DNA of 64,000 bases, taken from assembly GCA_902492105.1 (NCBI GenBank), contig CABUKD010000004.1:4301-68300 (forward strand). Direction: 5' to 3'. This stretch comes from an uncultured Clostridium sp. Lineage in GTDB: Bacteria > Bacillota > Clostridia > TANB77 > CAG-508. Both the position numbers and the translations under genes were made by a program. Below, piece by piece: positions 3,366 to 22,802 of the stretch (positions are counted from its first letter, which is position 1; each line of letters opens with the position of its first letter). The notes below the pieces were generated by a model, which saw nothing but the letters and a program-made list of their open reading frames with translations, did no database searches and was not told the origin of the DNA.

Positions 3366-3369
3366 AAAA

Positions 3370-3398
3370 TTGTCAAAAATCTCCGTCCCCATTGACAA
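3370..3398 (+). repeat. GTCCC-family repeat, type C copy 1 (TTGTCAAAAATCTCCGTCCCCATTGACAA)
   Basis: Same about 29-nt unit recurs at 33241-33289 and, inverted, at 50342-50380. 7-bp inverted repeat TTGTCAA/TTGACAA around CTCCGTCCCCA. Confidence 0.8.
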
Positions 3399-3401
3399 AA
3401 G

Positions 3402-5053: not shown

Positions 5054-6023
5054 ATGAAATTAATTTATAAAGTTCCTAAAACAAATCATTATCAAAATGT
5101 AAAAGAAGTTTTGAAGGCAGAATTTCAAATGTCTGATAGACTTCTTTTAAAGCTGAAAAAACTTCAAAAAATTTATTTAAATCAAAATATAGTATATGTG
5201 CACCATGCAATTTTGCCAGGAGATATGATTACTTGTGATTTAGATGATGAAGAAGATAATTCTATCATTGTTCCTATCAACATGCCTCTTTCTATTTTAT
5301 ATGAAGATGAAGCTTATTTGATTATAAATAAACCTGCTGGGATTCCTGTTCATCCTTCTATGGAACATTATACAGACAGCTTATCTAATGGTATACGTGC
5401 CTATTTTGATCAAATTAGCTTAAGGAAAAAAATAAGACCTGTAAATCGCTTAGATAAAGATACTTCCGGTATTGTGGTATTTGCCAAAAATGAATATGTT
5501 CAAGAAGCTTTGGTGAGACAAATGCAAAATCATCTTTTTCAAAAAGAATATATTGCTATTATTAGTGGTAAATTAGAAAAAAGTAAGCGGAACTATTTCT
5601 TTGCCAATTGCTAGAGAACAAAATAGTATTATAAAACGTTGTGTTGCAGAAAATGGTGCTAGAGCTATTACCCATTATGAAGTAATAAATCGCAACTCTG
5701 AAATATTTAATAATTTGCGAAATACACAAATTCATGCTAAAATACTACAAAATGTTGGTACTGCCAATCGCAATTTAGAAATTACAGAAGATTTTGAAAT
5801 AGTAAAATGCTTATTAGAAACCGGAAGAACTCATCAGATTCGTGTTCACTTTGCTGCTATTGGTCATCCTTTATTAGGGGATACACTTTATGGTTCTGCT
5901 TCTTCTCTTATTGCAAGGCAAGCGCTACACGCTTATCGAGTAACCTTTTTTCATCCTATTAGCAAGAAAAAGGTTTGCTATGTAGCGCCTATTCCAGATG
6001 ACTTTAATGCGTTTTTTTCATAA
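5054..6023 (+). CDS. RluA/RluD-family 23S rRNA pseudouridine synthase, reading frame interrupted (+1) at 5588-5591
   Basis: ORF 5054-5614 carries the S4-like N-terminus, PAGIPVHPS and RLDKDTSGIVVFAK. It continues in ORF 5601-6023 with GTISLPIAR and TGRTHQIRVH. The junction is AAG CGG A -> AAG (C) GGA ACT, and an A6 run 6 nt upstream is an alternative error site. Confidence 0.8.
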
Positions 6024-6025
6024 AA

Positions 6026-6236
6026 GAAGCTGTTCTAAAATATCATAATATATAGCAAAAGTATAATAATTGTCTTTTGAGATTTTAAGCCTTGCGTGGG
6101 CGACCATTGTGACAGCTGTTCGAGGCATTTATGCCGAGTTACAGATGTCCAAAAGGGGAAAGGTTTTAAAAATCGATAAAGACAATTATTATACTTTTAT
6201 AGAAATAAGAGATTTGTTCTTTTTTAGAACAGCTTC
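6026..6236. repeat. Foldback element copy 1: outer IR GAAGCTGTTCTAAAA/TTTTAGAACAGCTTC, inner 18-bp IR 6060-6077/6178-6195, 100-bp GC-richer core
   Basis: Paralog at 20081-20290 has collinear arms but the core in reverse complement. Lies between the rluD-like stop and the 3' end of rnpB. Confidence 0.85.
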
Positions 6237-6250
6237 TTTTCATATATATA

Positions 6251-6599
6251 ATAGTAAATCTATAAGCCGGGTTCTGTCTAGGATAGTCATTTATCTAGAA
6301 TTTATATTACTATAAATTTCATGCCACCAAATTAGAAGATGACGAGTAGTCTTAGCCTTCTGCTTTCGGTGTTGCTCCAGATGGGGTTTACACTGCCTAG
6401 TATGTCACCATACTAGCGGTAGGCTCTTACCCTGCCTTTTCACCCTTACCTAAAATTTTAGGCGGTTATTTTCTGTTGCACTTTCCTTAAGGTTGCCCTC
6501 ACTGGACGTTATCCAGCATCCTTACTCTATGGAGCCCGGACTTTCCTCGTACGCTGCCTTTCGACCTTGCTATACGCGACTATCCAACTTACTACTATT
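6251..6599 (-). ncRNA. rnpB: RNase P RNA
   Basis: The minus strand reads ...GAGGAAAGTCCGGGCTCCATAGAG... (P4 5' strand) and ...ACAGAACCCGGCTTATAG (P4 3' strand). P1 pairs ATAGTA/TACTAT at the ends. Ends approximate. Confidence 0.85.
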
Positions 6600-6718
6600 T
6601 TATTCTAACATGTTTTCTAAAAAAAAGCAAACACTGTTATCGTAACCCCTAAAATTGCTTTTTTATTATAATCTAAAAGGATATCCTGTTGGACATTCTT
6701 TTGTTTCATTTTTATAAT

Positions 6719-6766
6719 GAAGTGTCCCAAGTGACCCCTTTAGGGGCCACTAAGAACCGTCCCTAA
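6719..6766 (+). repeat. GTCCC-family repeat, type A copy 1
   Basis: GAAGTGTCCCAAGTGACCCC-TTTA-GGGGCCACTAAGAACCGTCCCTAAAG. Its end supplies the TAG stop of ORF 6763-7710. Confidence 0.8.
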
Positions 6767-7710
6767 AGTAGTGCCATTTTTGGAATTAAGTTTTGAAATT
6801 GAATATAAAAAATATCCTTATCTTGTAGGGTAACTGCACTTTTTAGTTCATTTAATAAAATATAGCATTGATTTTTTACAGTTTGGTTTTGATTTTCACT
6901 TGTATTTACTGTATTTAACAAATTGGCAAAATCATTTTCTGCTTGTGTTAACTCTTTGCTAGCTTCTTCCCATTTTGCATTTGTTACATTTGTATATGCT
7001 TGTATGGTATAATTTTGAATTGTCATTAGCTTTGTTTCTTCACTATCTGGTTCATACTGTTTTTTATAATCTAATAATAAGCCATATAGTTTTGTAACAT
7101 CATTCATTGCATCTTCCTTTTGTTTGTTTTTGATATTTTGTGTTGCAGTATTTAAAAAATTGCTAAATGATAAAATAGAATTTCCCTCTATATTTAATGC
7201 ATGTAAATCTATTGTAACAGTATTCCAGGTCTGGTAAAGATGTTCTATTTGTAGTTCTATTTTACTCCAATTCGTGGAATATTTTCCATCTTTTGCTAAA
7301 ATACTATCAGCTGAACTAGATTGTCCATTTTGATTTACTGTATTATCTTCAACATTTCCTTGTGAAGTATTCGTATTTTCGTTAGAAGAACTTTGTATTT
7401 CTTCTGTAGGACTAACTGTTCCTTCCTGTTGTGTGTTAGCACTCTGTTTTGTTTCTGCTTGTTGTTCTTCACTTGTTGTTTTATCAGATTTTAATTGAAT
7501 TGTATTTTCTTGTATAGAAAGAGAATTAAAATCTCCTAAAATAGATATTAAATAATTTTCTAAATAATTAATTTCTTCTGTTACTTTTGTTTGCAGTGTT
7601 AGTTTTCCTTCTTCATTTTTAGCATAAACAATAAAAGATCCTATTAGGCATGCTATAATTACAAAAGTAAGTATTAAAATAATAATATTTTTTTTCACAG
7701 TTTTCTTCAC
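6763..7710 (-). CDS. Hypothetical membrane-anchored protein (315 aa)
   Basis: N-terminal TM segment IIILILTFVIIACLIGSFIVY, then a low-complexity S/T/N/Q-rich region. No family recognised. Confidence 0.5.
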   Translation of the reverse strand: MKKTVKKNIIILILTFVIIACLIGSFIVYAKNEEGKLTLQTKVTEEINYLENYLISILGDFNSLSIQENTIQLKSDKTTSEEQQAETKQSANTQQEGTVSPTEEIQSSSNENTNTSQGNVEDNTVNQNGQSSSADSILAKDGKYSTNWSKIELQIEHLYQTWNTVTIDLHALNIEGNSILSFSNFLNTATQNIKNKQKEDAMNDVTKLYGLLLDYKKQYEPDSEETKLMTIQNYTIQAYTNVTNAKWEEASKELTQAENDFANLLNTVNTSENQNQTVKNQCYILLNELKSAVTLQDKDIFYIQFQNLIPKMALL

Positions 7711-7953
7711 AATTCCTTTCTTTGCTTTAACGTTATATAGAACACTAAAATTATCCTATACATCTATATAAAATATCTAAAATTGAATCACTGTTTTCAA
7801 TTCTTTATTTTTATACTACCCCAAAAAATTACCTTTTATTCTCATGTATAAATATTTTTATTTTATGTATACTACTAATAAGAAAAATGGAAAATTTATT
7901 TTGGTATAAAAAGGAAAGAAGAACTGTTTAATACAATTCTATTGGTAAAAAAT

Positions 7954-8238
7954 ATGAATGCTATTGTAAAATTATATAGTGATAAAAGTGGAGAAATTTT
8001 TAGATTTTTAAATCATTTTCAAAAAAAACCTCTTGAAAAAATAGAGAATCATTTATTATGGCAAAAAGAATATGAAAATCCTATTGAAATTGCAGATATT
8101 ATTGGTGCTTATATAGAAAATAAAGAAGAATATAAAATGAACATGTGGGTTAGCTTAGATAAGGACTTATTTATTAATATTACTCCCAATAATGCAGATG
8201 AGGTTATTCGTTATTTATATGAGCGCTATCCTTATTAA
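7954..8238 (+). CDS. Small hypothetical protein
   Basis: ORF 7942-8238, with the likely start at the MNAIVKLY methionine. No family recognised. Confidence 0.35.
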
Positions 8239-8684
8239 TTTTTTTCTAATATAATAGTTACCGGTCCATCATTTTGCAATATTACTTGCATTTCTGCTCC
8301 AAATTTACCTGTATCTACTTTTTTAATATTTTGTTTTTTACATTGCTCTACAAAATATTCATATAAAGCATTTGCCATGTTTGGTTCTGCTGCTCCAATA
8401 AAACTTGGTCTATTTCCATGATTGCAATCTGCATATAAAGTAAATTGAGAAACAATTAAAAGTTCTCCATCTATATCTTGAATAGATAAATTCATTTTTT
8501 GATTTTCATCTTCAAATACTCTTAGTTTAATTAGTTTTTGAACTAAAAAATCTGCAATCTCTTTAGTATCTGTTGGGGCAACACCTAACAAAACCATAAA
8601 ACCTTTTTCAATTTCACCTATTACGTTTCCTTCTACTACTACTTTTGCATTTTTTACTCTTTGTACTACTAATTTCATATTCAT
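8235..8684 (-). CDS. dtd: D-aminoacyl-tRNA deacylase
   Basis: [13 protein letters not shown]...GFMVLLGV...[17 protein letters not shown]..., the canonical Dtd sequence, 149 aa. Confidence 0.9.
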
Positions 8685-8850
8685 TCCTCACATTTATTTT
8701 ACTTTTTTTATTTAAAATACTATTTGTTCTGTTGTTTTATATAGTCATTTGTAAGTAATTTAGCCCATTATCATTAACCGCCATTTATAATTATTTTAAC
8801 TTATTTTATTTATATTTACATACTATCTAGCTAGTATATTAATTCATATA

Positions 8851-9354
8851 CTAATTTTCAACATTATTATTTGCATTATTTGCATTATTTTCGTTATTTT
8901 CGTTATTTTTGTTATAAGAATTAGTTAGCAAACTATCTTCTGTGTCTGTTGTCTCTAAGGTAGGTTTTGCTGTACTTTTCATTGTTTCTTGTTGTTCAAA
9001 ACCACAATTAGGACAATAACGAAATTCCAAGTCAATTTCGCTATGACAATTTTTACATTGTTTCAAATCCTTTAAGTTTAAAAGTTGCATACGATAATCT
9101 TCTACTTCATTGGCAAGTACATCGATCATAGAACAGTCATTGTCAAAATCTTTTTGCATATCTATATTTTCTTTTAGTAAATATTTTTCATATACTTTCT
9201 TTCCTATTTTCTCGTACAAATCATTAATTTGTGATTTATTGTCAGCCATATTTGCTTTTAGTTTAATTTCACGTGTAATTCTATTTGTTGCCTCTGCTGC
9301 ATTACGATAAGTCTGCATAGCTGTTTTACTTAATTTATTCATTACATTTTCCAT
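8851..9354 (-). CDS. Zinc-ribbon domain protein
   Basis: CKNCHSEIDLEFRYCPNCG zinc ribbon and an N/E-rich tail. Start set at MENVMNK behind GAGGA. Confidence 0.5.
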   Translation of the reverse strand: MENVMNKLSKTAMQTYRNAAEATNRITREIKLKANMADNKSQINDLYEKIGKKVYEKYLLKENIDMQKDFDNDCSMIDVLANEVEDYRMQLLNLKDLKQCKNCHSEIDLEFRYCPNCGFEQQETMKSTAKPTLETTDTEDSLLTNSYNKNNENNENNANNANNNVEN

Positions 9355-9613
9355 AACATTTTCCTCATAATATATACTTATTAAATTCAATAAGTATATC
9401 TTCCTTTCTATATATCTTTATCTATATTATCTTTTAATTATTAGATAGTCAAAGGAAAAAATCCTACAAGATAATATATATTTAAGAATTAAAAACTAAT
9501 TACATAACTTTTTAATAATTCCTTTTATTATTATGAAGAAAAAAATAAAAAATATACAAAAATCTATTTATATTTTTCAATTTTTGATACCTTTTATTTT
9601 CTTATTTTTTAAT

Positions 9614-10600
9614 TTACTCACACTTTTTTTCACGAGTCATTAATTTGGTAACTGCTTCCATTGGCTTTAAATTGTGATATAGAACATCATATACTGTATT
9701 TACAATTGGCATTTCAATGTTATATTTTTTTGCAAGCTCATAGGCAACTTCAATATTATCTATACTTTCAATAGTCATACCCACTTCTTTTTTAGTTTCT
9801 TCTATGCTAAGACCTCTACCAATACATTTACCTGCTTTTCTATTTCTACTATGCTCACTAAGACAAGTAACAATTAAATCTCCTAAACCTGATAATCCAT
9901 AAAAAGTATTGTGTTCACCACCCATGGCTACACCTAATCTAGAAAGCTCTGTTAATCCTCTAGTAATTAAGGCCGCGAAGGTATTATCTCCTAAATTTAA
10001 TTCTGCAATAATACCAGCGCAAAAAGCAATAATATTTTTTAAAGCTCCACCAAGTTCTACCCCTTCTACATCATTAGAAGTATATACTCTTAAATTTTCA
10101 TTCATAAGAGTATCTTGCACTTGGTATTGCACATCTTCATCTTTAGAAGCAATTACAATTGCTGTAGGTATATCAATACAAACTTCTTCTGCATGACTTG
10201 GACCAGAAAGAGCTCCTATTTTTACATTTGGAATTTCTTCTTCTGCCACTTTGCTTAAAGTAGATAAAGTTTCTTGTTCAAAACCCTTAGAGCAGATAAT
10301 AACAGGTTGAGTTGTAATATAGTCTTTATACTGCTTTAAAGTACTTCTAAAAAATCTAGAGGGTGTAACATGTAAAATTAGATCGGTATTTTCTACTGCT
10401 TCTTGAATATTGGTAGTACATACTATATTATCTGGCATAATTGCCATTGGTAAAAATTTGCATTTTCTTTTTTGATTAATAATATCTGCTTCTTCTTGTA
10501 AAAAAGACCAAATTTTTACTTCATGTCCCATTTTAGCAGCATGAATTGCTAAAGCACAACCCCAACTACCACTGCCAATAATTGCAATTTTTCTTTTCAT
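9614..10600 (-). CDS. gpsA: NAD(P)H-dependent glycerol-3-phosphate dehydrogenase
   Basis: MKRKIAIIGSGSWGCALA...LSGPSHAEEV...GALKNIIA... Confidence 0.9.
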   Translation of the reverse strand: MKRKIAIIGSGSWGCALAIHAAKMGHEVKIWSFLQEEADIINQKRKCKFLPMAIMPDNIVCTTNIQEAVENTDLILHVTPSRFFRSTLKQYKDYITTQPVIICSKGFEQETLSTLSKVAEEEIPNVKIGALSGPSHAEEVCIDIPTAIVIASKDEDVQYQVQDTLMNENLRVYTSNDVEGVELGGALKNIIAFCAGIIAELNLGDNTFAALITRGLTELSRLGVAMGGEHNTFYGLSGLGDLIVTCLSEHSRNRKAGKCIGRGLSIEETKKEVGMTIESIDNIEVAYELAKKYNIEMPIVNTVYDVLYHNLKPMEAVTKLMTREKKCE

Positions 10601-10612
10601 TTTTTCTCCTTT

Positions 10613-10666
10613 CAGCCATTTGGGACGTTCCTTTTTGGCTGAAAATCAGCCAAAAGGGACACTCCT
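10613..10666 (-). repeat. GTCCC-family repeat, type B copy 1 (inverted relative to copy 2)
   Basis: CAGCCATTTGGGACGTTCCTTTTTGGCTGAAAATCAGCCAAAAGGGACACTCC. Ends about 12 nt upstream of the gpsA ATG, directly abutting its GGAG Shine-Dalgarno. Confidence 0.8.
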
Positions 10667-10748
10667 TAATTTTGAGTCCTAATTTATATCATTATATCCA
10701 TTATATTATGACTTTTATCATAATATTAAAATTAAAAACATTTTAGAT

Positions 10749-10797
10749 GAAGTGTCCCAAGTTACCCCAGATGGGGCCACTGAGAACCGTCCCCAAC
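10749..10797 (+). repeat. GTCCC-family repeat, type A copy 2
   Basis: GAAGTGTCCCAAGTTACCCC-AGAT-GGGGCCACTGAGAACCGTCCCCAAC, a few nt 3' of the plsY stop codon. Confidence 0.8.
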
Positions 10798-10801
10798 TCA
10801 G

Positions 10802-11452
10802 CTATTTTTTAAAGCTAATCGTACTTTCTGTTCCAGAAAATAATCTTTTTAAGTTTTCCCTATGATTGAAGATAACTAGTAATGCTACAATTACACTATA
10901 AATAAAGTAACTCCAGTTATCCCATCCACTAGTAGAAACAATGTAGTTTTGGTCAATGAATAATACAAGTACTGGGAATAAGATAGCTGCTGCAATAGAA
11001 CCTACAGACACCATTCTAGTTAATGCAATTAAAATTAGAGCAAATACTAAGCAGATTAGTCCTACTTGCCAGTTTGTCATAAGCAAAACTCCTAATGCGG
11101 TAGCTACACCTTTTCCTCCTCTAAAGCGGAAAAATACTGGGAAGGTATGTCCTAGAATAACAAATACACCAGCTAGTTGTATTAATAAAGCATTATCTAA
11201 GCCAGATACCATTTTTCCCACTAAAAATGCAATTAATATTGCGATTACTCCTTTTAAAACATCACAAATTAAAGTAATAATAGCTGCTTTTTTTCCAACA
11301 GTTCTTAATACATTGGTACTTCCTGCATTTCCACTACCTTTTTCTCTTACATCAAAACCTGCCATCTTTTTACTAATAATAACTGAAAAACTAATACTAC
11401 CTAATAAATAGGCAACAATTGCAACAATAATATATGCTGCCATAAAAATCAC
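10802..11452 (-). CDS. plsY: Acyl-phosphate:glycerol-3-phosphate acyltransferase
   Basis: Polytopic membrane protein with KGSGNAGSTNVLRT and GGKGVAT motifs. Confidence 0.9.
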   Translation of the reverse strand: MIFMAAYIIVAIVAYLLGSISFSVIISKKMAGFDVREKGSGNAGSTNVLRTVGKKAAIITLICDVLKGVIAILIAFLVGKMVSGLDNALLIQLAGVFVILGHTFPVFFRFRGGKGVATALGVLLMTNWQVGLICLVFALILIALTRMVSVGSIAAAILFPVLVLFIDQNYIVSTSGWDNWSYFIYSVIVALLVIFNHRENLKRLFSGTESTISFKK

Positions 11453-11520
11453 TCTCCTTTTATACTATTTTTCTTTTTTTGTTTTAATGCATTGATTTTT
11501 CATTTTTGCTAACTTTTATT

Positions 11521-12849
11521 CTAATTTTCTTTTTCATTTTTTTCTCTTACTATCATTCTAACTGGGGTTCCTGTTAATCCAAATTCTTTCCTTATTTGGT
11601 TTAATAAATACCTTTCATAAGAAAAATGGAATAACTCTTTATCATTTACAAATACCACAAATGTAGGTGGTTTTGTACTAGCCTGTGTCATATAAAAGAT
11701 TTTTAGCCTTTTTCCTTTATCTGTTGGCGGTTGAACTATGGTAACTGCCTCACTTAACACTTCATTTAAAACAGCTGTTGAAACTCTTAATGCATTTTGA
11801 CTCGCTACCATGTTAATCATTTCAAATAGTTTATTTACTCTTTGCCCTGTTTTAGCTGAAATAAAAATGATTGGTGCATAACTTAAATAAGATAATTTGT
11901 CATAGACTTCTTTTTTGTAATTTTCAATTGTATTATTATCTTTTTCTATTTCATCCCACTTATTGACTGCAATAATAATACCTTTTCCTGCCTCATGGGC
12001 CTCTCCTGCTATTTTAGCGTCTTGCGCAGATACTCCCTCTTTGGCATCTAGTAACAAAATGCACACATCTGCTCTTTCAACAGCTAAAAGACTTCTCATA
12101 ACACTATATTTTTCTAGATTATCATTTACTTTACTTTTTCTACGAATTCCTGCTGTGTCAATTAACACATATTTTCCAAATTCATTTTCAAATTCAGAGT
12201 CGATAGCATCTCTTGTAGTTCCTGCAATATCACTTACAATCATTCTATCTTCTCCTAAAATTTTATTTACCAAAGAAGATTTTCCTACATTTGGTTTTCC
12301 TATAATTGCTACTTTAATTATATTTTTGTCCTCTTCCTCTTCTACTTGTTCTGGAAGCTTGTCGTAAATTGCATCTAGAACATCACCAATTCCTTTTGCA
12401 TTAACAGCAGAAACAGCATATGGCTCTCCTAAACCTAAATTATAAAATTCATATAATTCATCTGGTACTTTTCCAAAAGTATCTGACTTGTTACAAACTA
12501 GAACAATTGGTTTTTTAGATTTTTTTAACATTAATGCAATATCTTTATCTGCTGCAGTAACACCTTGCTTAATATCTGTTAAAAAGATAATAACATCTGC
12601 AATTTCCACTGCCATATCTGCTTGTCTACGCATTTGAGATAAAATAATATCGTCTGACTCTGGTTCAATTCCTCCTGTATCTATTAAAGTAAAGTCTCTT
12701 CCTCTCCAATTTGCTTCTGCATAAACTCTGTCTCTTGTAACACCTGGTGTATCTTCTACTATGGAAATTCTTTTTCCAACAATATAATTAAAAAAAGTAG
12801 ATTTGCCTACATTTGGTCTTCCTATAATTGCTACAATTGGCTTTGCCAT
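11521..12849 (-). CDS. der: Ribosome-associated GTPase Der/EngA (tandem GTPase domains plus KH-like domain)
   Basis: Two G domains (GRPNVGKST...DTGG; GKPNVGKSS...DTAG...NKWD), 442 aa. Confidence 0.95.
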   Translation of the reverse strand: MAKPIVAIIGRPNVGKSTFFNYIVGKRISIVEDTPGVTRDRVYAEANWRGRDFTLIDTGGIEPESDDIILSQMRRQADMAVEIADVIIFLTDIKQGVTAADKDIALMLKKSKKPIVLVCNKSDTFGKVPDELYEFYNLGLGEPYAVSAVNAKGIGDVLDAIYDKLPEQVEEEEDKNIIKVAIIGKPNVGKSSLVNKILGEDRMIVSDIAGTTRDAIDSEFENEFGKYVLIDTAGIRRKSKVNDNLEKYSVMRSLLAVERADVCILLLDAKEGVSAQDAKIAGEAHEAGKGIIIAVNKWDEIEKDNNTIENYKKEVYDKLSYLSYAPIIFISAKTGQRVNKLFEMINMVASQNALRVSTAVLNEVLSEAVTIVQPPTDKGKRLKIFYMTQASTKPPTFVVFVNDKELFHFSYERYLLNQIRKEFGLTGTPVRMIVREKNEKEN

Positions 12850-13028
12850 TTTTTCACCTTCTCTTTGTTTTTATGTTAAATTTATAATTCTTTTTTTACT
12901 ATTGAAATATATTTCTTATTAAACTATATTTCTTACTAAAAAATAATTTATATTTTCTGATTCTTATTATATTTTCCGATTTCATTTTACACTATTCGAA
13001 AAAAAATAGCAAGACTAAACTTGCTATT

Positions 13029-13526
13029 TTAATAAGTTAGTTTTCCCTCTAACATATCATCATTTTTTATCCAATCTTCTACCAAAATTTCTGTATATTC
13101 TTGGTCACTTTTTCCTCTTACAATTACTTTTTCAATTCCACAGTTAATAATCATTTTCCTACACATTTGGCAAGAATTAGCTCCTGGGTCATATTCTCCT
13201 GTTTCTGGTCTAAAAAGTACTAAATACAAAGTGGCACCTATCATTTCTCTTCTGCTTGCACTAATAATTGCATTCTGTTCTGCATGAACTGACCTACATG
13301 CATCATAACCGCCATGCCTAATATCTGGAAAATGTTTTTTCTTTGTACAATATCCTAAATCAATACAATTTATTCTTCCTCTAGGTGCTCCATTATATCC
13401 TGTCGCAATAATTTCATCATGATTTACAATTACGCATCCCGCTTTTTTTCGTAAACAAGTGCTTCTTTCCGCCACTGTTTTTGCAATATTTAAATAGTAA
13501 TTTGTTTTATCTATTCTTTGTTCCAT
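13029..13526 (-). CDS. comEB: Deoxycytidylate (dCMP) deaminase, ComEB-like
   Basis: VHAEQNAI ... CQMCRKMIINCGI zinc-binding CDA motifs. Confidence 0.85.
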   Translation of the reverse strand: MEQRIDKTNYYLNIAKTVAERSTCLRKKAGCVIVNHDEIIATGYNGAPRGRINCIDLGYCTKKKHFPDIRHGGYDACRSVHAEQNAIISASRREMIGATLYLVLFRPETGEYDPGANSCQMCRKMIINCGIEKVIVRGKSDQEYTEILVEDWIKNDDMLEGKLTY

Positions 13527-13543
13527 TTTTCTTTCCTTTCTGT

Positions 13544-13592
13544 GGGGACGGTTCTTAGTGGCCCCAAAAGGGGTCGCTTGGGACAGTTCACC
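13544..13592 (-). repeat. GTCCC-family repeat, type A copy 3 (inverted)
   Basis: GGGGACGGTTCTTAGTGGCCCC-AAAA-GGGGTCGCTTGGGACAGTTCACC, about 17 nt upstream of the deaminase ATG and next to its purine-rich Shine-Dalgarno. Confidence 0.8.
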
Positions 13593-13841
13593 TTAAAAGA
13601 CTGACTTTTTAATGATTTCATTTTATCATATTCTAAACAGTAAGTCTATAATTTCGTTTAAAAGAATTTTGTTTTCAGCCTATTTAATTTTTATTTGATA
13701 TTCTATATTAAAAAAACAATCTAGAACTTTTTATTCAATATATTTACTTGTTTACAGTCTTAAAAATAGTTTTCCCTTTCTTAACAAAAAAAGAAGCAAT
13801 CAAATGCTTCCTTCTTTATAACTTATTAATCATTTTTTATT

Positions 13842-14024
13842 TTAGTTTTCAGATTTTGCAACTACTTCTTTTCCATCATAATATCCACAATTTGGACATA
13901 CTCTGTGTTGCATTACTTTTTCATGACAATGTGGACAATCTACTAAATTTTGAGCTTCGATTTTCCATGTTGATCTTTTTAAGTGTGTTCTTGCTTTTGA
14001 CCATCTTCTTTTTGGTTGTGCCAT
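13842..14024 (-). CDS. rpmF: 50S ribosomal protein L32
   Basis: MAQPKRRWSKARTHLKRSTW...CPHCHEKVMQHRVCPNCGYY. Confidence 0.9.
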   Translation of the reverse strand: MAQPKRRWSKARTHLKRSTWKIEAQNLVDCPHCHEKVMQHRVCPNCGYYDGKEVVAKSEN

Positions 14025-14119
14025 TATAATTCCCTCCCTTAACTTCTGCTATTTTGCTGTAATCTATCTATATTTTTATTACCTAAAACGGATACTATAA
14101 AATTATACTCGTTTTTCTT

Positions 14120-15061
14120 CTATTTGTCAACTACTTTTTTTGCTACAATTGCAAATCTTCCATCTTCTACGTGATAATCACAGGTAGATAAAGTTATTAA
14201 TTGGTCACCATATTGGGCTGTTTCTGCAATATTATATAAAGATAATTTTTTTACATTTTCAATATAGTTATTAAATTCTTCTTCATTTTCAGCATCTTTG
14301 AAGAAATAATATTTAAATACATCCTGACTTTTTAAATATACTTGTGATTGAAATACAGCAATAATTTGATATTTGGAAACTTCCTCTAATGTGGCAAATT
14401 CAAAGGTAGGATGTTCTTTATAAAAATCTTCTTTTTTATATTTTGTTAATGTTTCAAACATTTGCCCACCATTACTTCTATGACCATAAATTAGGAAATT
14501 TGCTGTAGGCTTTTCTATACTGCAATCTTTATCTAAAAAGATACTTCCTAATTCATTGGATTGTTTTTTGAAATTATGATTTACATAGTAATCGTTATTG
14601 TCTGTTTGCAATACTGGATAGTCCACTTCTGTTCCCTCTATTGTTAACCATCCTACTAAATCTGAATTTTGCTGTTTTAATTCTTGTAAATTAGCCAATA
14701 GTATTTGTTTTCTTTGTTCCTCTTCTGAGGCATTTTGATTAACTTCTGTATTAGGTGTTGCTACAAAATTTGCTAAATCCTCCATCATTTTTTTATTTTG
14801 CCACTGTGTATAGACATAGTAAATTAAATAAGCAATACTTGCAATTAAGATAACAGATAAAATAATAATAGCTATTAATTTTCCATTTATTTTTTTCTTT
14901 CTGCCTTCATGAGTTTTTTCTTTATCTTTAAAGTGTTTTTCTTTATTGCTTTTATTTTCTCTATCTATTTGTTTTTGAATGTTTTTGTTGTCTTTTTCTT
15001 TACTATGTTTACTTATATTCTTTTTCATTGCCAAATCCTTTCTGAAATCTCTTTTCTGCAT
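14120..15061 (-). CDS. srtB: Class B sortase
   Basis: Lys-rich N-terminus, TM segment, then ...FLIYGHR...LITLSTCDYH...RFAIVAKK catalytic His/Cys/Arg context. Start codon uncertain. Confidence 0.8.
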   Translation of the reverse strand: MQKRDFRKDLAMKKNISKHSKEKDNKNIQKQIDRENKSNKEKHFKDKEKTHEGRKKKINGKLIAIIILSVILIASIAYLIYYVYTQWQNKKMMEDLANFVATPNTEVNQNASEEEQRKQILLANLQELKQQNSDLVGWLTIEGTEVDYPVLQTDNNDYYVNHNFKKQSNELGSIFLDKDCSIEKPTANFLIYGHRSNGGQMFETLTKYKKEDFYKEHPTFEFATLEEVSKYQIIAVFQSQVYLKSQDVFKYYFFKDAENEEEFNNYIENVKKLSLYNIAETAQYGDQLITLSTCDYHVEDGRFAIVAKKVVDK

Positions 15062-15318
15062 GGTTTTTACTTTAATCTTGTTAGGCTACTTTATGATATG
15101 AACTTCTTTTCAATGTATTATGAATTATATCATATTCTTATAAAAATTCAAATAAAGACTTTTAAAAATTACAAATATTTACAAACTATGTATTTAATTT
15201 TTAAATTGAACTATTTACAAACTATAGTTAATTTTATGCTCTCTAGCTTTATAAAAAACATAGTATGGTTTTAATTACATACTATGTTTTCTTGATTTTT
15301 ATAGTTTTATTTAGTAGT

Positions 15319-16779
15319 CTATTTTACTCTTTTCATTACTACAATTGCACCTAAAGAAATAACAACCAAAGCACTTGCCAATACAACATAAGTATTTACA
15401 CCTGTTTTTGGTGTCTCATCTTTTTCCTCTTCTGGTGTAGTAGTTTCTCCAGAAGTTGTTGTGTCTCCAGTACCTCCCAATTTTGTTTCTGTTACTGCAT
15501 AAGTTGAGCAATGTTCTAAAGATAATTTTAAGTTTCCATTGTTATATGTTGCTGTTCCCATATCTTCATATTTTGCTGTTAGTTCATTATAATAATATAA
15601 GTTTAGGTCTTTTTGACCGTCTCCATATTTGTCTGCTCCTACAAATATAGTGATATCTGCTTTTCCTGGTAATTTTCCATCATAAGCAAATTCTATAAAT
15701 AATCCATTTGTAATATCATTTGGCTTAATATGTGAAAATTTTTCTGCAGATACTTGTACAGATGGTGTAAAAGCAGTGTCTGTTTTTGTAATATCTTCAC
15801 TTGCAAATTCCCATGTAACATTTGCTACATTAATTTGTAAAGTAGCTTTTTTAGCATCTTTTAATGCTGAAAATACTTCTTTTTCTACTAAAGTTGGTGT
15901 GCTCATTGTTACAATAGTAGTTTTGTAGTCTTCTATTGCTGATACTATTTCTTCTGTAGTAGGGTCTGTTAGCTCGTTTACAGTTAATTCTCTGTATTTT
16001 GCTTCACTAATAGCACACATTTCAACTACGTCTATTTTGTCTAAATTCAAAAGATTTCTTACATTAAATGCTACTTGATGTTTACTATTAAGGGTAATAT
16101 CTCTTTTTGAGTCTCCCAAAACAATATCTATTTTTTCTCCCTCACCTTCTAGTCCGTCGCCAATTTGTCCACTATAGTCAAATCCAATATTTTCTGGAAT
16201 AGCTACTTTTTCGCCCGTTTCTTTATCATAAGCAACTAAAGTAACAGTATCTCCTACTAAAGTATACCAATCTCCATCAATATTTACTACATTTTCGCCT
16301 TCTAATACATAATCATATTGTCTTGCTTTAAGTGTAAGAACTTTTTGCTCATATACTTCATCATTTACTGTTAAATTAACACTTCCTACTTCTTCTTGTG
16401 TTGTAAGATCTGCTACTTTATAATTAATCCAGTCATCTGTACTTTTTACAGTAAGTTTGGTAGAAGTTTCATCTAAAGTAAATTCTGCTGTATCTGGAGC
16501 TTCTGGATTGCCTGATGCAATCGTGTTAGAATTACCATTAAATCCTACATTTTCTGGTAAAACTACTTTTTCTCCGGTTTCATAATCATAAGCAAATAAA
16601 GTAACAGTGTCTCCTTCTTTTGCAAAATAACGTCCATCTACTTCAATGACATTTTCGCCTTCCACACCATAACTTAAGCTTTTGGCATCTGTTGCTGCTA
16701 AAGTTGTTGTTAATGGTAATACCATTGCAATTAACATTACAGCCACCATTAACACTGAAATTGTTTTCAATTTCTTCAT
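15319..16779 (-). CDS. Sortase-anchored cell-wall surface protein with internal duplication
   Basis: Signal peptide. Duplicated about 110-aa module (YGVEGENVIEVDGRYF...TGEKVVLPENVGF / YVLEGENVVNIDGDWY...TGEKVAIPENIGF). C-terminal TPKTG, hydrophobic stretch and KRVK sorting signal. Confidence 0.8.
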   Translation of the reverse strand: MKKLKTISVLMVAVMLIAMVLPLTTTLAATDAKSLSYGVEGENVIEVDGRYFAKEGDTVTLFAYDYETGEKVVLPENVGFNGNSNTIASGNPEAPDTAEFTLDETSTKLTVKSTDDWINYKVADLTTQEEVGSVNLTVNDEVYEQKVLTLKARQYDYVLEGENVVNIDGDWYTLVGDTVTLVAYDKETGEKVAIPENIGFDYSGQIGDGLEGEGEKIDIVLGDSKRDITLNSKHQVAFNVRNLLNLDKIDVVEMCAISEAKYRELTVNELTDPTTEEIVSAIEDYKTTIVTMSTPTLVEKEVFSALKDAKKATLQINVANVTWEFASEDITKTDTAFTPSVQVSAEKFSHIKPNDITNGLFIEFAYDGKLPGKADITIFVGADKYGDGQKDLNLYYYNELTAKYEDMGTATYNNGNLKLSLEHCSTYAVTETKLGGTGDTTTSGETTTPEEEKDETPKTGVNTYVVLASALVVISLGAIVVMKRVK

Positions 16780-16844
16780 AATTTTCTCTCCTTTTATTTT
16801 AAATTTATATAAAAGTTAATAAATATTAACTTTATATACTATTT

Positions 16845-17166
16845 ATAACTAATATTATATCTTTTCGCACTTTTCATAATCGAGGACCATTAATAGTTTC
16901 GGTTAGTTTTTTTGTTCAAGCTCTATATATTGCAAAAGTGTAGACCGCATAAGCGACCAAACGGAGTGGCTTTGCCACGTAGTGCGAATTGGAGCAATTT
17001 TCATACTAGTATGTGCAGAAAATCATAGATTTTCTTGCACATTATGGAAATTGCGACACCAAGGTCAAACGTTGCAATATATAGAGTTTGAACTATATTC
17101 TTTATTAAGCTCTCACTTCTATGGGACGAACTTATGAAAAGGAAAAAAGATATAATATTAGTTTAT
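16845..17166. repeat. Foldback element 3 / candidate invertible promoter: outer about 35-bp IR (16845-16879 / 17132-17166), inner 22-bp IR (16914-16935 / 17072-17093, 21/22 match), 136-bp core
   Basis: Inverted repeats read directly from the sequence. Same nested architecture as elements 6026-6236 and 20081-20290. A partial third copy of the left arm lies at about 17179-17200. Confidence 0.75.
17041..17068 (-). promoter_or_regulatory. Sigma-A-like promoter inside the IR-flanked core, pointing toward the surface-protein gene
   Basis: The minus strand reads TTGACC (17068-17063), a 16-nt spacer, then CATAAT (17046-17041). Confidence 0.45.
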
Positions 17167-17218
17167 TTGTTTAAGAATTAATCTTTTGCACTTTTCATGA
17201 TTCAGAATTATGAATAAC

Positions 17219-19846
17219 TTATCTAGGGTTCTTAATTGCTGCTTGTGCTGCTGCTAAACGAGCAATTGGAACTCTAAATGGTGAGCAAGATACATAAGTA
17301 AGTCCAATATTGTGGCAGAATTCAACTGTAGGTGGATTTCCTCCATGTTCTCCACAAATTCCTAGGTGAATATCTGGTCTTGTTTGTTTTCCTAAATCAA
17401 CTGCCATTTTTACTAATTTTCCAACACCAACTTGGTCAAGTTTAGCAAATGGATCTGATTCATAAATTTTCTTATCATAGTAAGCTCCTAAGAATTTTCC
17501 AGCATCATCACGGCTAAATCCAAATGTCATTTGTGTTAAGTCATTTGTACCAAATGAGAAGAATTCAGCTTCTTTTGCAATTTCATCTGCAGTTAATGCT
17601 GCTCTTGGAATTTCAATCATAGTTCCTACTTCATATTTTAATTTTACTCCTGCTTTTGCAATTTCTTCTTCTGCTGTTTTTACAATAATGTCTTTTACAT
17701 ATTTTAATTCTTTTACTTCTCCTACTAATGGAACCATAATTTCTGGAACAATATTCATTCCAGTTTCTTTGTTTACATTAATAGCAGCTTGAATAATTGC
17801 TCTAGTTTGCATTACACCAATTTCTGGGTAAGTAACATCCAAACGGCATCCTCTGTGTCCCATCATTGGGTTGAATTCATGTAGACTATTTACTACTTCT
17901 TTTAATGCTTCAAAAGTCATTCCCATTTCTTTTGCTAAAGCAGAAATTTCTTCGTCTGTATGTGGTAAGAATTCATGTAAAGGTGGGTCTAGTAAACGAA
18001 TTGTTACTGGGTAGCCTTTCATTGCTTTGAATATTCCTTCAAAGTCTCCTCTTTGCATTGGAAGAATTTTGTTTAAAGCTTTTTCTCTTTGTTCTACTGT
18101 TTTAGAAACTATCATTTCACGAATAGCTGCAATTCTTTCTGGTGCAAAGAACATATGCTCTGTACGGCATAGTCCAATACCTTGTGCTCCAAAGTTGTAT
18201 GCTACAGTTGCATCTTTTGGAGTATCTGCATTAGTTCTAACTTCCATTTGACGATATTGATCTGCCCATCCCATTAATTTAGCAAAATCTCCTGAAACAG
18301 TTGCATCAACAGTGTCAATTTTTTCTCCATATACATTTCCTGTAGAACCGTCTAATGAAATGTAATCTCCTTCATGATATACATTTCCTTGTGGATCTTT
18401 GAATTCTCCTTTTTCTTCGTCTACTACTAATTCTCCACATCCAGCTACACAGCATGTACCCATACCACGAGCAACTACTGCTGCATGTGATGTCATACCA
18501 CCACGAACTGTTAAAATACCATGGCATACATTCATACCATCAATATCTTCTGGAGAAGTTTCAAGTCTTACTAAAATTAAATCTTTTTCTCCTGCTTCAT
18601 GTAGTTCTACTGCTCTATCTGCTGTAAATACTACTTTACCTGTTGCAGCTCCTGGAGATGCAGCTAAACCTTTAGCTACTGGTTTTGCAGCTTTTAATTT
18701 TGCTTGGTCAAAGTTTGGATGTAATAATTGGTCTAATTGATTTGGTTCTACTCTTAAAACAGCCTCTTTTTCTGTAATCATGCCTTCATTTACTAAATCT
18801 ACGGCAATTTTTAATGCAGCATTTGCTGTTCTTTTACCATTTCTAGTTTGTAAGAAGAATAGTTTTCCTCTTTCAATGGTAAATTCCATATCTTGCATAT
18901 CTCTATAATGTTTTTCTAGTTCATTTGCATATTTTACGAAATCCTCATATGCTTGTTTGTTGGTTTGTTCTAGAGTTGCAATAGGTTGTGGAGTTCTAAT
19001 TCCTGCAACAACGTCTTCGCCTTGTGCATTCATTAAATATTCTCCAAATAGTTTGTTTTCACCTGTTGCTGGGTTACGAGTAAATGCAACACCAGTTCCA
19101 CAGTCATCTCCCATGTTTCCGAAAACCATTTCTTGAACATTAACTGCTGTACCCCAGTCTCCTGGAATATCGTTTAATCTTCTATAAGTAATAGCTCTTG
19201 GATTGTTCCATGAACGGAAAACTGCTTTAACAGCTTCTTTTAATTGTTCTACTGGATCGCTTGGGAATTCACTTCCATGTTCTTTTAAGTAAATTGCCTT
19301 AAATGTTCCTACTAATTCTTTCAAATCTTCTGCTGTTAATTCTGTATCTAATTTTACGCCTCTTTTTTCTTTCATTTCGTCAATTGCTTTTTCGAATAGT
19401 GGTTTTGGAATTTCCATTACAACATCACTAAACATTTGAATAAATCTTCTGTAGCTATCATAAGCAAATCTTTCATTTTTTGCAGCTATTGATTTTAATA
19501 CTTCATCATTTAAACCTAAGTTTAAAATTGTATCCATCATACCTGGCATAGATGCTCTTGCTCCTGAACGTACAGATACTAATAATGGATTTTCTTTATC
19601 TCCAAATTTCTTTCCAGAAATTTCTTCTAATTTAGATAGTGCTTCGAAAATTTGATCTTCCACTTCTTTTGAAATGGTTTCACCATCCTCATAGTATTTT
19701 GTACATGCCTCAGTTGTTACTGTAAATCCTTGTGGAATTGGTAAACCTAAATTTGTCATTTCTGCAAGGTTAGCACCTTTTCCTCCTAGCAATTCTCGCA
19801 TGCTAGCATTTCCTTCTTTGAATAAGTAAACATACTTGTGACTCAT
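17219..19846 (-). CDS. ppdK: Pyruvate, phosphate dikinase
   Basis: 875 aa; ...GGKGANLAEM...GGMTSHAAVVARGMG...LGICGEHGG... Confidence 0.95.
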   Translation of the reverse strand: MSHKYVYLFKEGNASMRELLGGKGANLAEMTNLGLPIPQGFTVTTEACTKYYEDGETISKEVEDQIFEALSKLEEISGKKFGDKENPLLVSVRSGARASMPGMMDTILNLGLNDEVLKSIAAKNERFAYDSYRRFIQMFSDVVMEIPKPLFEKAIDEMKEKRGVKLDTELTAEDLKELVGTFKAIYLKEHGSEFPSDPVEQLKEAVKAVFRSWNNPRAITYRRLNDIPGDWGTAVNVQEMVFGNMGDDCGTGVAFTRNPATGENKLFGEYLMNAQGEDVVAGIRTPQPIATLEQTNKQAYEDFVKYANELEKHYRDMQDMEFTIERGKLFFLQTRNGKRTANAALKIAVDLVNEGMITEKEAVLRVEPNQLDQLLHPNFDQAKLKAAKPVAKGLAASPGAATGKVVFTADRAVELHEAGEKDLILVRLETSPEDIDGMNVCHGILTVRGGMTSHAAVVARGMGTCCVAGCGELVVDEEKGEFKDPQGNVYHEGDYISLDGSTGNVYGEKIDTVDATVSGDFAKLMGWADQYRQMEVRTNADTPKDATVAYNFGAQGIGLCRTEHMFFAPERIAAIREMIVSKTVEQREKALNKILPMQRGDFEGIFKAMKGYPVTIRLLDPPLHEFLPHTDEEISALAKEMGMTFEALKEVVNSLHEFNPMMGHRGCRLDVTYPEIGVMQTRAIIQAAINVNKETGMNIVPEIMVPLVGEVKELKYVKDIIVKTAEEEIAKAGVKLKYEVGTMIEIPRAALTADEIAKEAEFFSFGTNDLTQMTFGFSRDDAGKFLGAYYDKKIYESDPFAKLDQVGVGKLVKMAVDLGKQTRPDIHLGICGEHGGNPPTVEFCHNIGLTYVSCSPFRVPIARLAAAQAAIKNPR

Positions 19847-19935
19847 AAAGAACCTCCTTCTAATTTGGCATATTGCCTTTTACGTAAACAATATGTGTGT
19901 AATTTTGCTATTAAAATATACCTAATAGCTTTTTT

Positions 19936-19964
19936 ATTATATCCATATTTTGCTAAAATGTAAA
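19936..19964 (-). promoter_or_regulatory. Likely ppdK promoter
   Basis: The minus strand reads TTTACA (19964-19959), a 17-nt spacer, then TATAAT (19941-19936), about 90 nt upstream of the ppdK ATG. Confidence 0.5.
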
Positions 19965-20012
19965 GCAATTTTTCGTTAATTTCAACAATATTTTTTATTT
20001 TTGCGGAAAGTA

Positions 20013-20041
20013 TTGAAAGTGTTTTTAGAATCTGATATAAT
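20013..20041 (+). promoter_or_regulatory. Near-consensus orphan promoter aimed at foldback element copy 2
   Basis: TTGAAA (20013-20018), 17-nt spacer, TATAAT (20036-20041) on the plus strand. No plus-strand ORF follows; the next feature is the foldback at 20081. Confidence 0.5.
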
Positions 20042-20080
20042 GTAAAAAATTTGGTTTGTAAATATTTTATAAATAATAAA

Positions 20081-20290
20081 GAAGCTGACCTAAAATATCA
20101 TAATATATAACTAAAGTATAATAATTGTCTTTTTCGATTTTTAAAACCTTTCCCCTTTTGGACATCTGTAACTCGGCATAAATGCCGTAAGCAGCTGTCA
20201 CAATGGTCGCCCACGCAAGGCTTAAAAATCTCAAAAGACAATTATTATACTTTTATTAAAATAGATTTAATTTAATTTTAGGTCAGCTTC
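20081..20290. repeat. Foldback element copy 2: outer IR GAAGCTGACCTAAAA/TTTTAGGTCAGCTTC, inner 18-bp IR 20115-20132/20234-20251, 101-bp core inverted relative to copy 1
   Basis: Left arm is about 30/34 identical to copy 1 in the same orientation. The core matches the reverse complement of copy 1's core except for one about 6-nt patch. Confidence 0.85.
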
Positions 20291-20310
20291 TTTATTATAT
20301 ATTGTGTAAA

Positions 20311-20342
20311 AAAGGAATCCCAAAAACAGGATTCCTTTTGTA
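20311..20342. terminator. Bidirectional rho-independent terminator
   Basis: AAAAAGGAATCC-CAAAAACA-GGATTCCTTTTGT. Confidence 0.6.
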
Positions 20343-20364: not shown

Positions 20365-21147
20365 TTATTCTATAATGGTATAGCCTACTAAATCTGGTTT
20401 TTCTACATCTTCGTCCGTTATGGTATTAATTTTCCAATCTGTATATTCTACTATTAAAGGCATTGTAATTCCGTTATCTATTGTACTGCCTTCCTCTGCT
20501 TTTACTTTTATACCAGTTTCTTTATTAACCCATAGTTTTCCATCTTGAAAACGATTAATTACATAGCAATCTTGTCCATTTACATTTTCAGAAGAGATAA
20601 AGCTTGTTAGAGCTAAGTAAAGTATGTTGTCTCTCCATCCTTGTAAAATTTCTGTAGAGAATGGATTATTTATAGTTATAACGTGAGTGCTATAACTTAC
20701 TCGTTGTACTTCTGGAAAGGCTGATATCATTTCATCTGTGTCCGTGTTAACCCACGCTATTAATTTTTCTGTGCCATCTGTGGTGTAAGTCATTTTATAG
20801 ATATTGTCTTTTACAGCAAGCTTGGTTGTTTCTCCTGTGTTTTGTGAAATTGTGTAGGCATAATTTTGCATATTCTCATATTGTGACATTTTTTCTAAAA
20901 TATCGCTCATAATGAGATAATTTCTAGTCCAGTTTAAGGCTACTGCAAGTAAGATAATAAAGATTAGAATAAATACTACTTTTAGTGCTGTTTTTCCCTT
21001 ACTTGGTTCTTTTTCTTTGACTTTTTTTGTTTCTGGTTTCTCGTTTTTTTCTTTTTTTGGCTTACTATCTTGCTGTTTCATTTTTTCTTTCTTCTTAGTT
21101 TCTTCTTGTTTTGCTTGTTCTACTTTTTTAATTTCTTTCTCTTCCAT
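20365..21147 (-). CDS. Hypothetical membrane-anchored protein (Lys/Glu-rich N-terminus, one TM segment)
   Basis: 260-aa ORF with TM segment ALKVVFILIFIILLAVAL. No family recognised. Confidence 0.5.
   Translation of the reverse strand: MEEKEIKKVEQAKQEETKKKEKMKQQDSKPKKEKNEKPETKKVKEKEPSKGKTALKVVFILIFIILLAVALNWTRNYLIMSDILEKMSQYENMQNYAYTISQNTGETTKLAVKDNIYKMTYTTDGTEKLIAWVNTDTDEMISAFPEVQRVSYSTHVITINNPFSTEILQGWRDNILYLALTSFISSENVNGQDCYVINRFQDGKLWVNKETGIKVKAEEGSTIDNGITMPLIVEYTDWKINTITDEDVEKPDLVGYTIIE

Positions 21148-21253: not shown

Positions 21254-22802
<1,549 letters not shown>

Follow-up and report, generated by a model that had tools for sequence, protein, structure and literature searches.

Nested inverted repeats have repeatedly inverted the DNA that they enclose in a palindromic repeat family of gut Clostridia

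Two related elements, each around 210 bp in length, lie between genes in a 64,000-nucleotide (nt) stretch of contig CABUKD010000004.1 from an uncultured Clostridium sp. (assembly GCA_902492105.1, positions 4,301 to 68,300), which we refer to as the window. Copy 1 (positions 6026–6236 of the window) sits between two convergent 3′ ends: it begins 3 nt past the stop codon of a gene for a rluD-like pseudouridine synthase and ends 10 nt from the 3′ end of rnpB. Copy 2 (20081–20290) is 234 nt from the start codon of ppdK, with a promoter-like site (TTTACA-17-TATAAT, 19964–19936) between the two and outside the element; on its other side, a terminator-like hairpin (around 20310–20340) that belongs to an upstream open reading frame (ORF) of 260 amino acids separates that ORF from the copy. 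All of these genes were located as given in an initial annotation, which had been made from the letters alone and had proposed that the centre of one element is inverted relative to its arms.

Both elements are built exactly as that annotation described, with an outer inverted repeat, two spacers (S1 and S2), an inner inverted repeat and a core (Table 1). We name the orientation of the core in copy 1 core+; in copy 2, core+ is on the minus strand. A repeat search of the window found the left arms to be collinear (direct repeat 6023–6086 and 20078–20141, 91% identity), as are the right arms (6166–6207 and 20222–20263, 88%), and the centres to be reverse complements of each other (6083–6197 versus 20113–20227, 115 nt, 96% complementary), a match that chance cannot explain. 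Pairwise identities agree with this picture, and with the identity of about 93% claimed earlier: core 1 is 93% identical to the reverse complement of core 2 and 68% identical to core 2 read directly, and the sole block difference between them is TTCGAGG versus CTTACGG, the latter being the internal-loop variant of copy 2. The claimed likeness of the spacers stands for S1 (89.5% identical in direct orientation) and less so for S2 (67%), which is less alike than had been implied. S1 is only 50–64% identical to the reverse complement of S2; the arms are thus not palindromic, their orientation is defined and the core of copy 2 is truly flipped relative to its arms.

The two elements are members of a family and not an isolated pair. 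An exact 20-mer from the core had 28 matches in around 7 species of metagenome-assembled genomes (MAGs), in contigs that represent one genome per species; the carriers are four MAGs named ‘uncultured Clostridia’, MAG HGM13671, Clostridium sp. CAG:273 and a Bacillota MAG from long reads, which has 9 or more copies. One of the matches fell at the terminus of a contig assigned to Treponemataceae by binning, had no core beyond the 20-mer and was not recovered as a unit. A second core 20-mer matched 18 metagenome loci. Using an nhmmer profile of the core, we recovered 68 full-length units, 43 of which are distinct, and in the window only the two known copies. The host range spans around 8 genomes of uncultured gut Clostridia, relatives of Clostridium sp. 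CAG:273. No match to the element was found in plasmids and phages (blastn) or in viral contigs (exact-pattern scan), and a protein search with a spurious ORF that crosses the core returned just 9 clusters, all from this repeat family, which indicates that the family is narrow. None of the 43 units overlaps an ORF of at least 100 amino acids. Of the flanking gene pairs, 11 are convergent, 23 are tandem and a single one is divergent, and nearly all units adjoin a gene 3′ end, at a distance of tens of nt. Among the tandem cases core orientation shows no preference (14 antisense and 9 sense with respect to the genes). We conclude that this is an undescribed multicopy, non-coding, intergenic repeat of a clade of gut Clostridia. 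The genes between closely spaced copies (L023, L027, L035 and L044; labels of this form denote loci or sequences that were compared with the window) are ordinary ORFs, none of which is common to the intervals; no Pfam screen was made of them, and one might still encode a transposase. In the L027 interval, the translations are those of housekeeping proteins (gatB, rpsT and hpf among them).

The basic unit is around 150 nt in length and consists of a near-invariant core of around 80 nt and a closing stem of around 33 bp. Mean pairwise identity is 92% in the core (41 copies), 85–87% in the inner half of the stem, 62–64% in its outer half and 41–42% in the flanks. In its outer half, the closing stem has its own sequence at each locus and is nevertheless complementary, whereas the inner half is conserved (TCTTTTGAGATTTTAAGCC in copy 1). 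Across the closing stem, 97.8% of cells hold standard pairs and 23 pairs have changed on both sides; helix 1 (P1) comprises 36 pairs, 21 of them with changes on both sides. None of 500 shuffles reached the observed values, and slid controls were 40–52% paired. Of 41 copies, 12 have a clear outer repeat, which encloses S1 and S2, both of them asymmetric and AT-rich. The outer stems are locus-specific and complementary and end in YCTAAAA; otherwise they differ and covary between loci. Between its A-run and T-run, the outer stem looks like that of a bidirectional intrinsic terminator, and the outer left arm of copy 1 together with the flanking A-run resembles the 5′ half of such a stem. A scan for intrinsic terminators made no call, and we found no conserved −35 element upstream of a TATAAT-like box in S1. 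A dif/Xer-like reading of S1, suggested by TATATATTATG in the window copy, was dropped because other copies do not conserve the XerD-arm-like TTATG.

Evidence of inversion at a single locus came from looking up the ppdK protein in public assemblies and aligning the intergenic region, which revealed four alleles. The window state is shared with L003 and L004. In L001, L005, L008, L009 and L010, the interior between the outer repeats (20096–20275) is reversed. L002 has an empty site, and the composite behaves as a single piece that can be inserted; comparison with this site suggests a possible 5-bp target duplication at copy 2 (TTTAT), and another may be present at copy 1 (TCATA), although inspection of seven other composite copies revealed no constant target-site duplication. 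The fourth allele, in a more distant lineage (L006 and L007, 2740–2790), is a short hairpin of unrelated appearance, AAAAAGTTCTAAAGTATAAAAATATTTTAGAACTTTTT. This hairpin ends in CTAAA...TTTAG, as does the outer repeat, from whose layer it may be left over or to which it may have given rise; a search of 78 loci turned up no other example. An allele of S2 with two single-nucleotide polymorphisms (SNPs) occurs in both orientations (L070 and L076 versus the L001 group). In addition, the k = 31 unitig L073, which has the reversed state, stops where its last k-mer spans the 23-nt repeat with 1 flank-specific base on one side and 7 nt of S1 on the other, as expected at a branch of the de Bruijn graph if both states were present in that sample (Logan contigs are built with k = 31), a hint that cannot separate flipping in one population from a mixture of strains.

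Reversal extends beyond ppdK. Six of ten orthologous comparisons, covering five of nine loci, were flipped and the four other pairs were not. At a second locus the flip involves the outer repeat, with the whole composite reversed (L033 versus L039). At three loci it involves the inner repeat, so that the unit of inner stem and core is reversed between near-identical flanks: L041 and 10 more contigs versus L055 and L063 (flanks 97.7–98.9% identical), L040 versus L060 (98.8–100%) and L044 versus L051 (96.5–99.5%). Flipped alleles keep a stem that is unique to the locus (ATAAGAGGT in L040 and L060, AGTACAGTAATAAGTG in L044 and L051), and this is the case in every flipped pair, which counts against re-insertion of another copy. 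Inner flips always carry the asymmetric conserved positions of the inner stem (left, GAR; right, YGA) along with the core; exchange must therefore have taken place in the outer part of the stem, which is perfectly complementary and variable between loci. Each perfect inverted-repeat layer (21–33 bp) has thus repeatedly inverted its enclosed DNA in place. At the two window loci themselves no inner-repeat flip between strains was seen, and by analogy with the other loci copies 1 and 2 probably differ by an inner flip. The three orthologous loci support the earlier proposal of inversion across the inner repeats. They also bear out its dismissal of whole-element insertion in two orientations as the cause. 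The concern raised with it, that each locus might be fixed in one orientation with no further copies, does not apply, as both states occur between strains and there are 43 distinct units.

Two explanations of these alleles require no inversion. Flipped alleles might be mis-assemblies of a repeat that lies between inverted repeats; contigs often break at the element, and L056 joins the flanks of two loci through the common core. However, both window copies are on one contig, flipped states recur across independent samples and assemblers with k values from 55 to 141 that exceed the 23–33-bp repeats, and the reversed ppdK state is found in five independent assemblies with SNPs of their own, so that an artefact is scarcely credible. 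Alternatively, the core unit might be a small mobile element that inserts either way into the apex of a host palindrome. The conserved part of 114 nt has imperfect terminal repeats of around 19 bp, similar to a miniature inverted-repeat transposable element (MITE), and both the ppdK allele with the short hairpin alone and the insertion polymorphism in L002 would fit such a history. Yet flipped alleles keep their locus-unique stems, and re-insertion would bring the stem of the donor or need stems derived from the target; no core-less host palindrome was found in the window or the 78 loci; and the stems of different loci are homologous, and so are part of the repeat. Hairpins with only the outer CTAAA...TTTAG numbered 13 in the window against an expectation of 11.8, and so show no enrichment. 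We consider this explanation highly improbable.

We think it rather probable that the flips are by-products of the palindromic architecture, arising by template switching or by recombination between short repeats, and not a programmed switch; between a recombinase and template switching, we favour template switching. A nascent strand would switch template twice at the hairpin during replication and so turn the enclosed DNA around, or a RecA-type exchange between the short repeats might have the same outcome. Any perfect inverted repeat would suffice, whatever its sequence and with no dedicated invertase, and the same process would keep the arms perfectly complementary. A sequence-independent process is preferred because two unrelated layers flip, the exchanged parts are locus-specific, arm conversion is explained and no recombinase is near: Pfam scans of 40 of the larger ORFs of the window placed no recombinase gene within 30 kb of either copy. 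Template switching is documented to generate perfect stems, to restore them and to turn hairpin loops around (PMC8794818), and in chloroplasts small inversions of the flip-flop type recur at stem-loops with 11–24-bp repeats (Kim & Lee 2005, cited in PMC12928735). As in spontaneous inversion between repeats, the breakpoints here lie in perfect repeats, flips are recurrent and arms are converted by one another.

The evolution of the stems at the DNA level bears on this conversion. In the variable stem, one-sided changes are almost absent, and G·U (7) and A·C (8) combinations show no strand asymmetry, a pattern unlike that of a helix kept solely by selection on one RNA strand. L055 and L063 are alleles of one locus, alike in flip state, that are separated by a compensated pair of changes (T>G and A>C); the arms of L060 are perfect and those of its flipped partner L040 have two mismatches; and the window copies differ at two positions of the outer repeat, both compensated (TT/AA versus AC/GT). 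The arms of a stem are thus converted to each other, and rapidly so. At a divergence of about 1%, orientation is discordant in around half of the allele pairs and, as a rough estimate, flips are at least around 100 times commoner than point substitution at one site, a rate within reach of spontaneous events.

Several observations weigh against a passive origin of the flips. Copy 1 is identical in 9 other assemblies, and hence in a single state in 10 of 10 with the window included, despite its perfect repeats. The flip rate is bounded only from below and is compatible with slow spontaneous as well as fast enzymatic flipping. Two sequences are conserved from copy to copy, the inner half of the inner repeat (TGTCTTTTGAAATTTTTAAGG) and the YCTAAAA with which the outer repeat ends, and either could be bound by a recombinase. 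Inverted segments of around 70–180 bp exceed the loops for which template-switch inversion is documented, and the arm configuration is found in a ratio of around 12 loci to 5, not 1:1. Finally, a passive model leaves unexplained why an asymmetric core is conserved across around 8 species in either orientation.

An alternative is programmed phase variation of the kind known from invertons, in which a trans-acting, site-specific recombinase recognizes the conserved parts of the repeats and flips many loci together and rapidly, with orientation setting which strand of the core enters the 3′ untranslated region (UTR) or whether the hairpin terminates transcription. Such a system would fit the two orientations of one locus between near-identical strains, the hint of both states in one sample (L073), the conserved sequence at the inner edge of both repeat layers and the conservation of an asymmetric core, owing to which orientation could matter. 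The window also encodes two large serine recombinases, and global invertases that act on distant sites are known in gut bacteria from the inverton literature. Nevertheless, the outer stem halves, where exchange must occur, differ at every locus, and two layers with unrelated repeats flip. Promoter scans and inspection of the alignment found no promoter conserved inside the core or stem; consensus scans of the invertible segment gave only weak AT-rich matches that depend on locus-specific stem sequence. The core lacks an orientation bias to genes in tandem contexts, and the two serine recombinases, the only ones in the Pfam scans, are in an integrated element beside a tRNA gene that also has a relaxase, a setting that fits integrases. 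The single state of copy 1 counts against this system as well. We regard programmed phase variation as unlikely, and continue to favour spontaneous inversion.

The core+ strand is predicted to fold into a Y shape with a three-way junction. Its short arm is a GUGG-GCGA-CCAU hairpin; its longer arm (GACAGCUG...CAGAUGUC) contains an internal loop and has the tip GGCAUUUAUGCC (GGCA-UUUA-UGCC); and a purine-rich stretch, CCAAAAGGGGAAAGG, is left unpaired. In a few copies the short hairpin is replaced by GGGU-CUUG-ACCU or GGGC-CCUG-GCCU, in a few the tip is changed by compensated pairs (GGCG...CGCC, GGCAC..GUGCC), and in L027 a tandem G·A is turned into Watson–Crick pairs. The internal-loop variants (TTCGAGG and CTTACGG) and the short-hairpin variants occur in all combinations which, together with the joined flanks of L056, point to exchange between copies. 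In L056 (metagenome contig OLNO01020101.1, 1395–1505), the left flank of L040 is joined to the right flank of L030 via the core, either by a real rearrangement between two copies or by chimeric assembly. The orthologues L032 and L045 share an identical unit of 168 nt, and the coding sequence beside it has just 88% identity. Selection, gene conversion among the copies or a combination of the two must account for the constancy of the core. A variant copy in L077 (2950–3150), downstream of a spoIIM–xerD-like gene pair, is without S1 and the right outer arm and has an internal tandem duplication of 14 nt (TTGAGATTTTTAAG twice); its inner stem is fully Watson–Crick (GAG/CTC) at a position at which other copies keep a mismatch.

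Read as RNA, these features could be those of a small structured RNA family that is expressed from the core+ strand, in which case the stem would be a selected RNA helix and inversion would be inactivating damage. Core+ folds better than the other strand (alifold, −53.5 versus −47.1 kcal/mol), also in single copies; the core helices contain 86 G·U and 6 A·C combinations, although 69 of the 86 are from two fixed positions; and the exchange of the GNRA-looped hairpin for other hairpins, the covarying tip and the repaired tandem G·A of L027 all resemble the evolution of a structured RNA. However, the initial annotation had recognized no known RNA family and Rfam 15 offers none: nothing on the elements at the gathering score in a scan of the whole window and, for copy 1 at E ≤ 10, only a chance match to CRISPR-DR25 (15.5 bits, E = 3.2). 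Neither side carries a conserved promoter (the 5′ flanks are 41% identical), there is no orientation bias to genes and no excess of G·U in the variable stem, and the core helices are so nearly invariant that covariation is uninformative there. We judge an RNA family of this kind to be very unlikely. The core may perhaps act as a folded RNA or single-stranded DNA motif in a terminator or 3′-UTR position or, alternatively, may perhaps be the recognition site of a trans-acting factor that spreads the element; a single-stranded DNA hairpin recognized by a trans-acting protein is equally as possible as a core+ RNA.

A quite unlikely, although more far-reaching, possibility combines recombinase and RNA: a trans-acting recombinase would flip Y-shaped cores within terminator-like hairpins at a dozen or more gene 3′ ends per genome. 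The two nested levels would provide four states per locus, and each flip would pick the core strand that is present in the 3′ UTR. One strand would expose an unpaired AAAAGGGGAAAGG, and the other its C/U-rich complement, which looks like the anti-Shine–Dalgarno seeds of Firmicute small RNAs. Such invertible modules, if real, would amount to multi-locus phase variation that operates through RNA and not through a promoter, in a lineage without a cultured representative.

Among known systems, the small inversions of hairpins (in chloroplast non-coding stem-loops and in RNA-gene hairpins; PMC8794818) are similar in that the segment is bounded exactly by the stem arms, inversion recurs among close relatives, no specific repeat sequence is required and repair restores the perfect complementarity of the arms, at times through several compensatory changes together; many of those in chloroplasts are also in 3′-end stem-loops. 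Their loops are usually 4–50 nt and single-copy, whereas here a segment of 70–180 bp has a conserved structured core, two nested layers and a dispersed, multicopy distribution. Invertons (fimS and the switches of Bacteroides and C. difficile) likewise are short, intergenic segments bounded by inverted repeats, with both orientations at one locus, in gut hosts, and at five of our loci both orientations occur with breakpoints in inverted repeats. In contrast to the elements described here, invertons are fixed regulatory loci, their repeats are conserved for one invertase and they carry a promoter or the end of a coding sequence; in our segments no promoter was found, nor any invertase nearby, and they have locus-specific repeats, are dispersed at gene 3′ ends and flip in two nested layers.

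The REP, BIME and REPIN sequences that are associated with RAYT transposases (PMC3116915) are also extragenic, multicopy and hairpin-forming, are found after genes and show compensatory changes in the hairpin and vertical persistence in one bacterial lineage. The elements described here share the extragenic hairpin palindrome with compensatory changes and lack the conserved arms: in REPINs the arms are conserved and the spacer is free, whereas here the conserved part is the core, at 92% identity, with outer arms at 62–64%. We know of no description of spacer inversion in REPINs. MITEs (bcr1 of the Bacillus cereus group, Correia, RUP and ERIC) resemble the family in their size (around 150–210 bp), non-coding nature, terminal inverted repeats, copy number, presence–absence polymorphism (here, 43 distinct copies and the empty site of L002), AT-rich target and long hairpin when transcribed. 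They differ in having conserved terminal repeats bound by a transposase and a consistent target duplication; the outer stems described here vary and have only YCTAAAA in common. The flip and flop states of the inverted terminal repeats of adeno-associated virus and other parvoviruses also involve a long stem that closes an asymmetric Y- or T-shaped interior, two reverse-complementary orientations and fixed adjoining sequence. They arise through transfer of the terminal hairpin of a linear, single-stranded genome in which Rep makes a nick, whereas the present elements are internal to a chromosome and associated with no Rep-like gene; the likeness is one of form only.

The most probable meaning of these observations is structural instability of a novel palindromic repeat, not a programmed switch. 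They add an undescribed repeat family for a common group of uncultured human-gut Clostridia and—to our knowledge—provide an unusually clear example in bacteria of a dispersed element that is repeatedly flipped at two levels by its own inverted repeats, with co-evolving arms. Covariation of a stem is normally taken to prove a functional RNA helix and here appears to be made at the level of DNA, which calls for caution in the discovery of RNA motifs. Caution also applies to inverton callers, which would score these loci as phase-variable switches. If the flips are driven by an enzyme, or if a flip chooses the RNA strand of the core, they would represent a new regulatory principle.

Table 1 Positions of the elements and of other features in the window
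Feature	Position	Strand	Sequence or remark
Copy 1, outer inverted repeat, left arm	6026–6040	+	GAAGCTGTTCTAAAA
Copy 1, spacer S1	6041–6059 (19 nt)	+	TATCATAATATATAGCAAA; asymmetric, marks arm orientation
Copy 1, long stem P1, 5′ strand	6057–6094	+	Outer part is the locus-variable inner inverted repeat 6060–6077
Copy 1, inner inverted repeat, left arm	6060–6077 (18 bp)	+	AGTATAATAATTGTCTTT
Copy 1, core (100 bp)	6078–6177	+	Orientation named core+
Copy 1, inner inverted repeat, right arm (P1 3′ strand)	6178–6195	+	AAAGACAATTATTATACT
Copy 1, spacer S2	6196–6221 (26 nt)	+	
Copy 1, outer inverted repeat, right arm	6222–6236	+	TTTTAGAACAGCTTC, then TTTT
Copy 2, outer inverted repeat, left arm	20081–20095	+	Perfect repeat is 23 nt, ATAATAAAGAAGCTGACCTAAAA, 20073–20095
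Copy 2, spacer S1	20096–20114 (19 nt)	+	
Copy 2, inner inverted repeat, left arm	20115–20132	+	
Copy 2, core (101 bp)	20133–20233	−	core+ on minus strand; flipped relative to S1 and S2 compared with copy 1
Copy 2, inner inverted repeat, right arm	20234–20251	+	
Copy 2, spacer S2	20252–20275 (24 nt)	+	
Copy 2, outer inverted repeat, right arm	20276–20290	+	
rluD-like pseudouridine synthase	5054–6023	+	Two overlapping ORFs, 5054–5614 and 5601–6023
rnpB (RNase P RNA, class A)	6247–6595	−	Rfam RNaseP_bact_a, 295.6 bits
ppdK	17219–19846	−	
260-amino-acid ORF upstream of copy 2	20365–21147	−	
479-amino-acid ORF	21254–22693	−	
Direct repeat (86%)	22516–22712 and 46405–46601		N-terminal parts of the 479-amino-acid ORF and of the retroelement target
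Diversity-generating retroelement	42914–46633		
RNA of the retroelement	42914–43025	−	Rfam RT-14
Template repeat	43021–43165		
Reverse transcriptase ORF	43249–44268	−	
439-amino-acid ORF (retroelement target)	45314–46633	−	
Variable repeat	45324–45468		C-terminal end of the 439-amino-acid ORF
Integrated mobilisable element	50448–62633		
tRNA gene	50448–50518		Adjoins the integrated element
Large serine recombinase (split)	51089–52952		In the integrated element
Mob_Pre relaxase	53149–54588		In the integrated element
KilA-N protein	57617–58414		In the integrated element
Large serine recombinase	60843–62633		In the integrated element
Other palindromic repeats	6710–6768, 10610–10668, 10720–10795, 13540–13613, 24681–24754, 24817–24909		
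Other palindromic repeats, further sites	3366–3400, 33245–33276, 50349–50383		

Elsewhere in the window, the split of the rluD-like gene into two ORFs is identical in all 9 other assemblies that carry the locus, and is either a fixed or a programmed frameshift. The integrated mobilisable element carries both large serine recombinases together with the relaxase and a KilA-N protein. A diversity-generating retroelement includes a reverse transcriptase, an RT-14 RNA, and template and variable repeats with 17 of 20 differences at template adenines; a 165-amino-acid ORF with a weak MutS_I match lies between its parts. No link was found between this retroelement and the element studied here. The 479-amino-acid ORF, which is beside the neighbour of copy 2, and the target of the retroelement are paralogous, surface-protein-like genes that share a direct repeat in their N-terminal parts. 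The window contains at least two more families of palindromic repeats between genes, in which GGGAC(G)/GTCCC motifs abound and which have no relation to the element studied here, and the genome thus carries several families of hairpin repeats.

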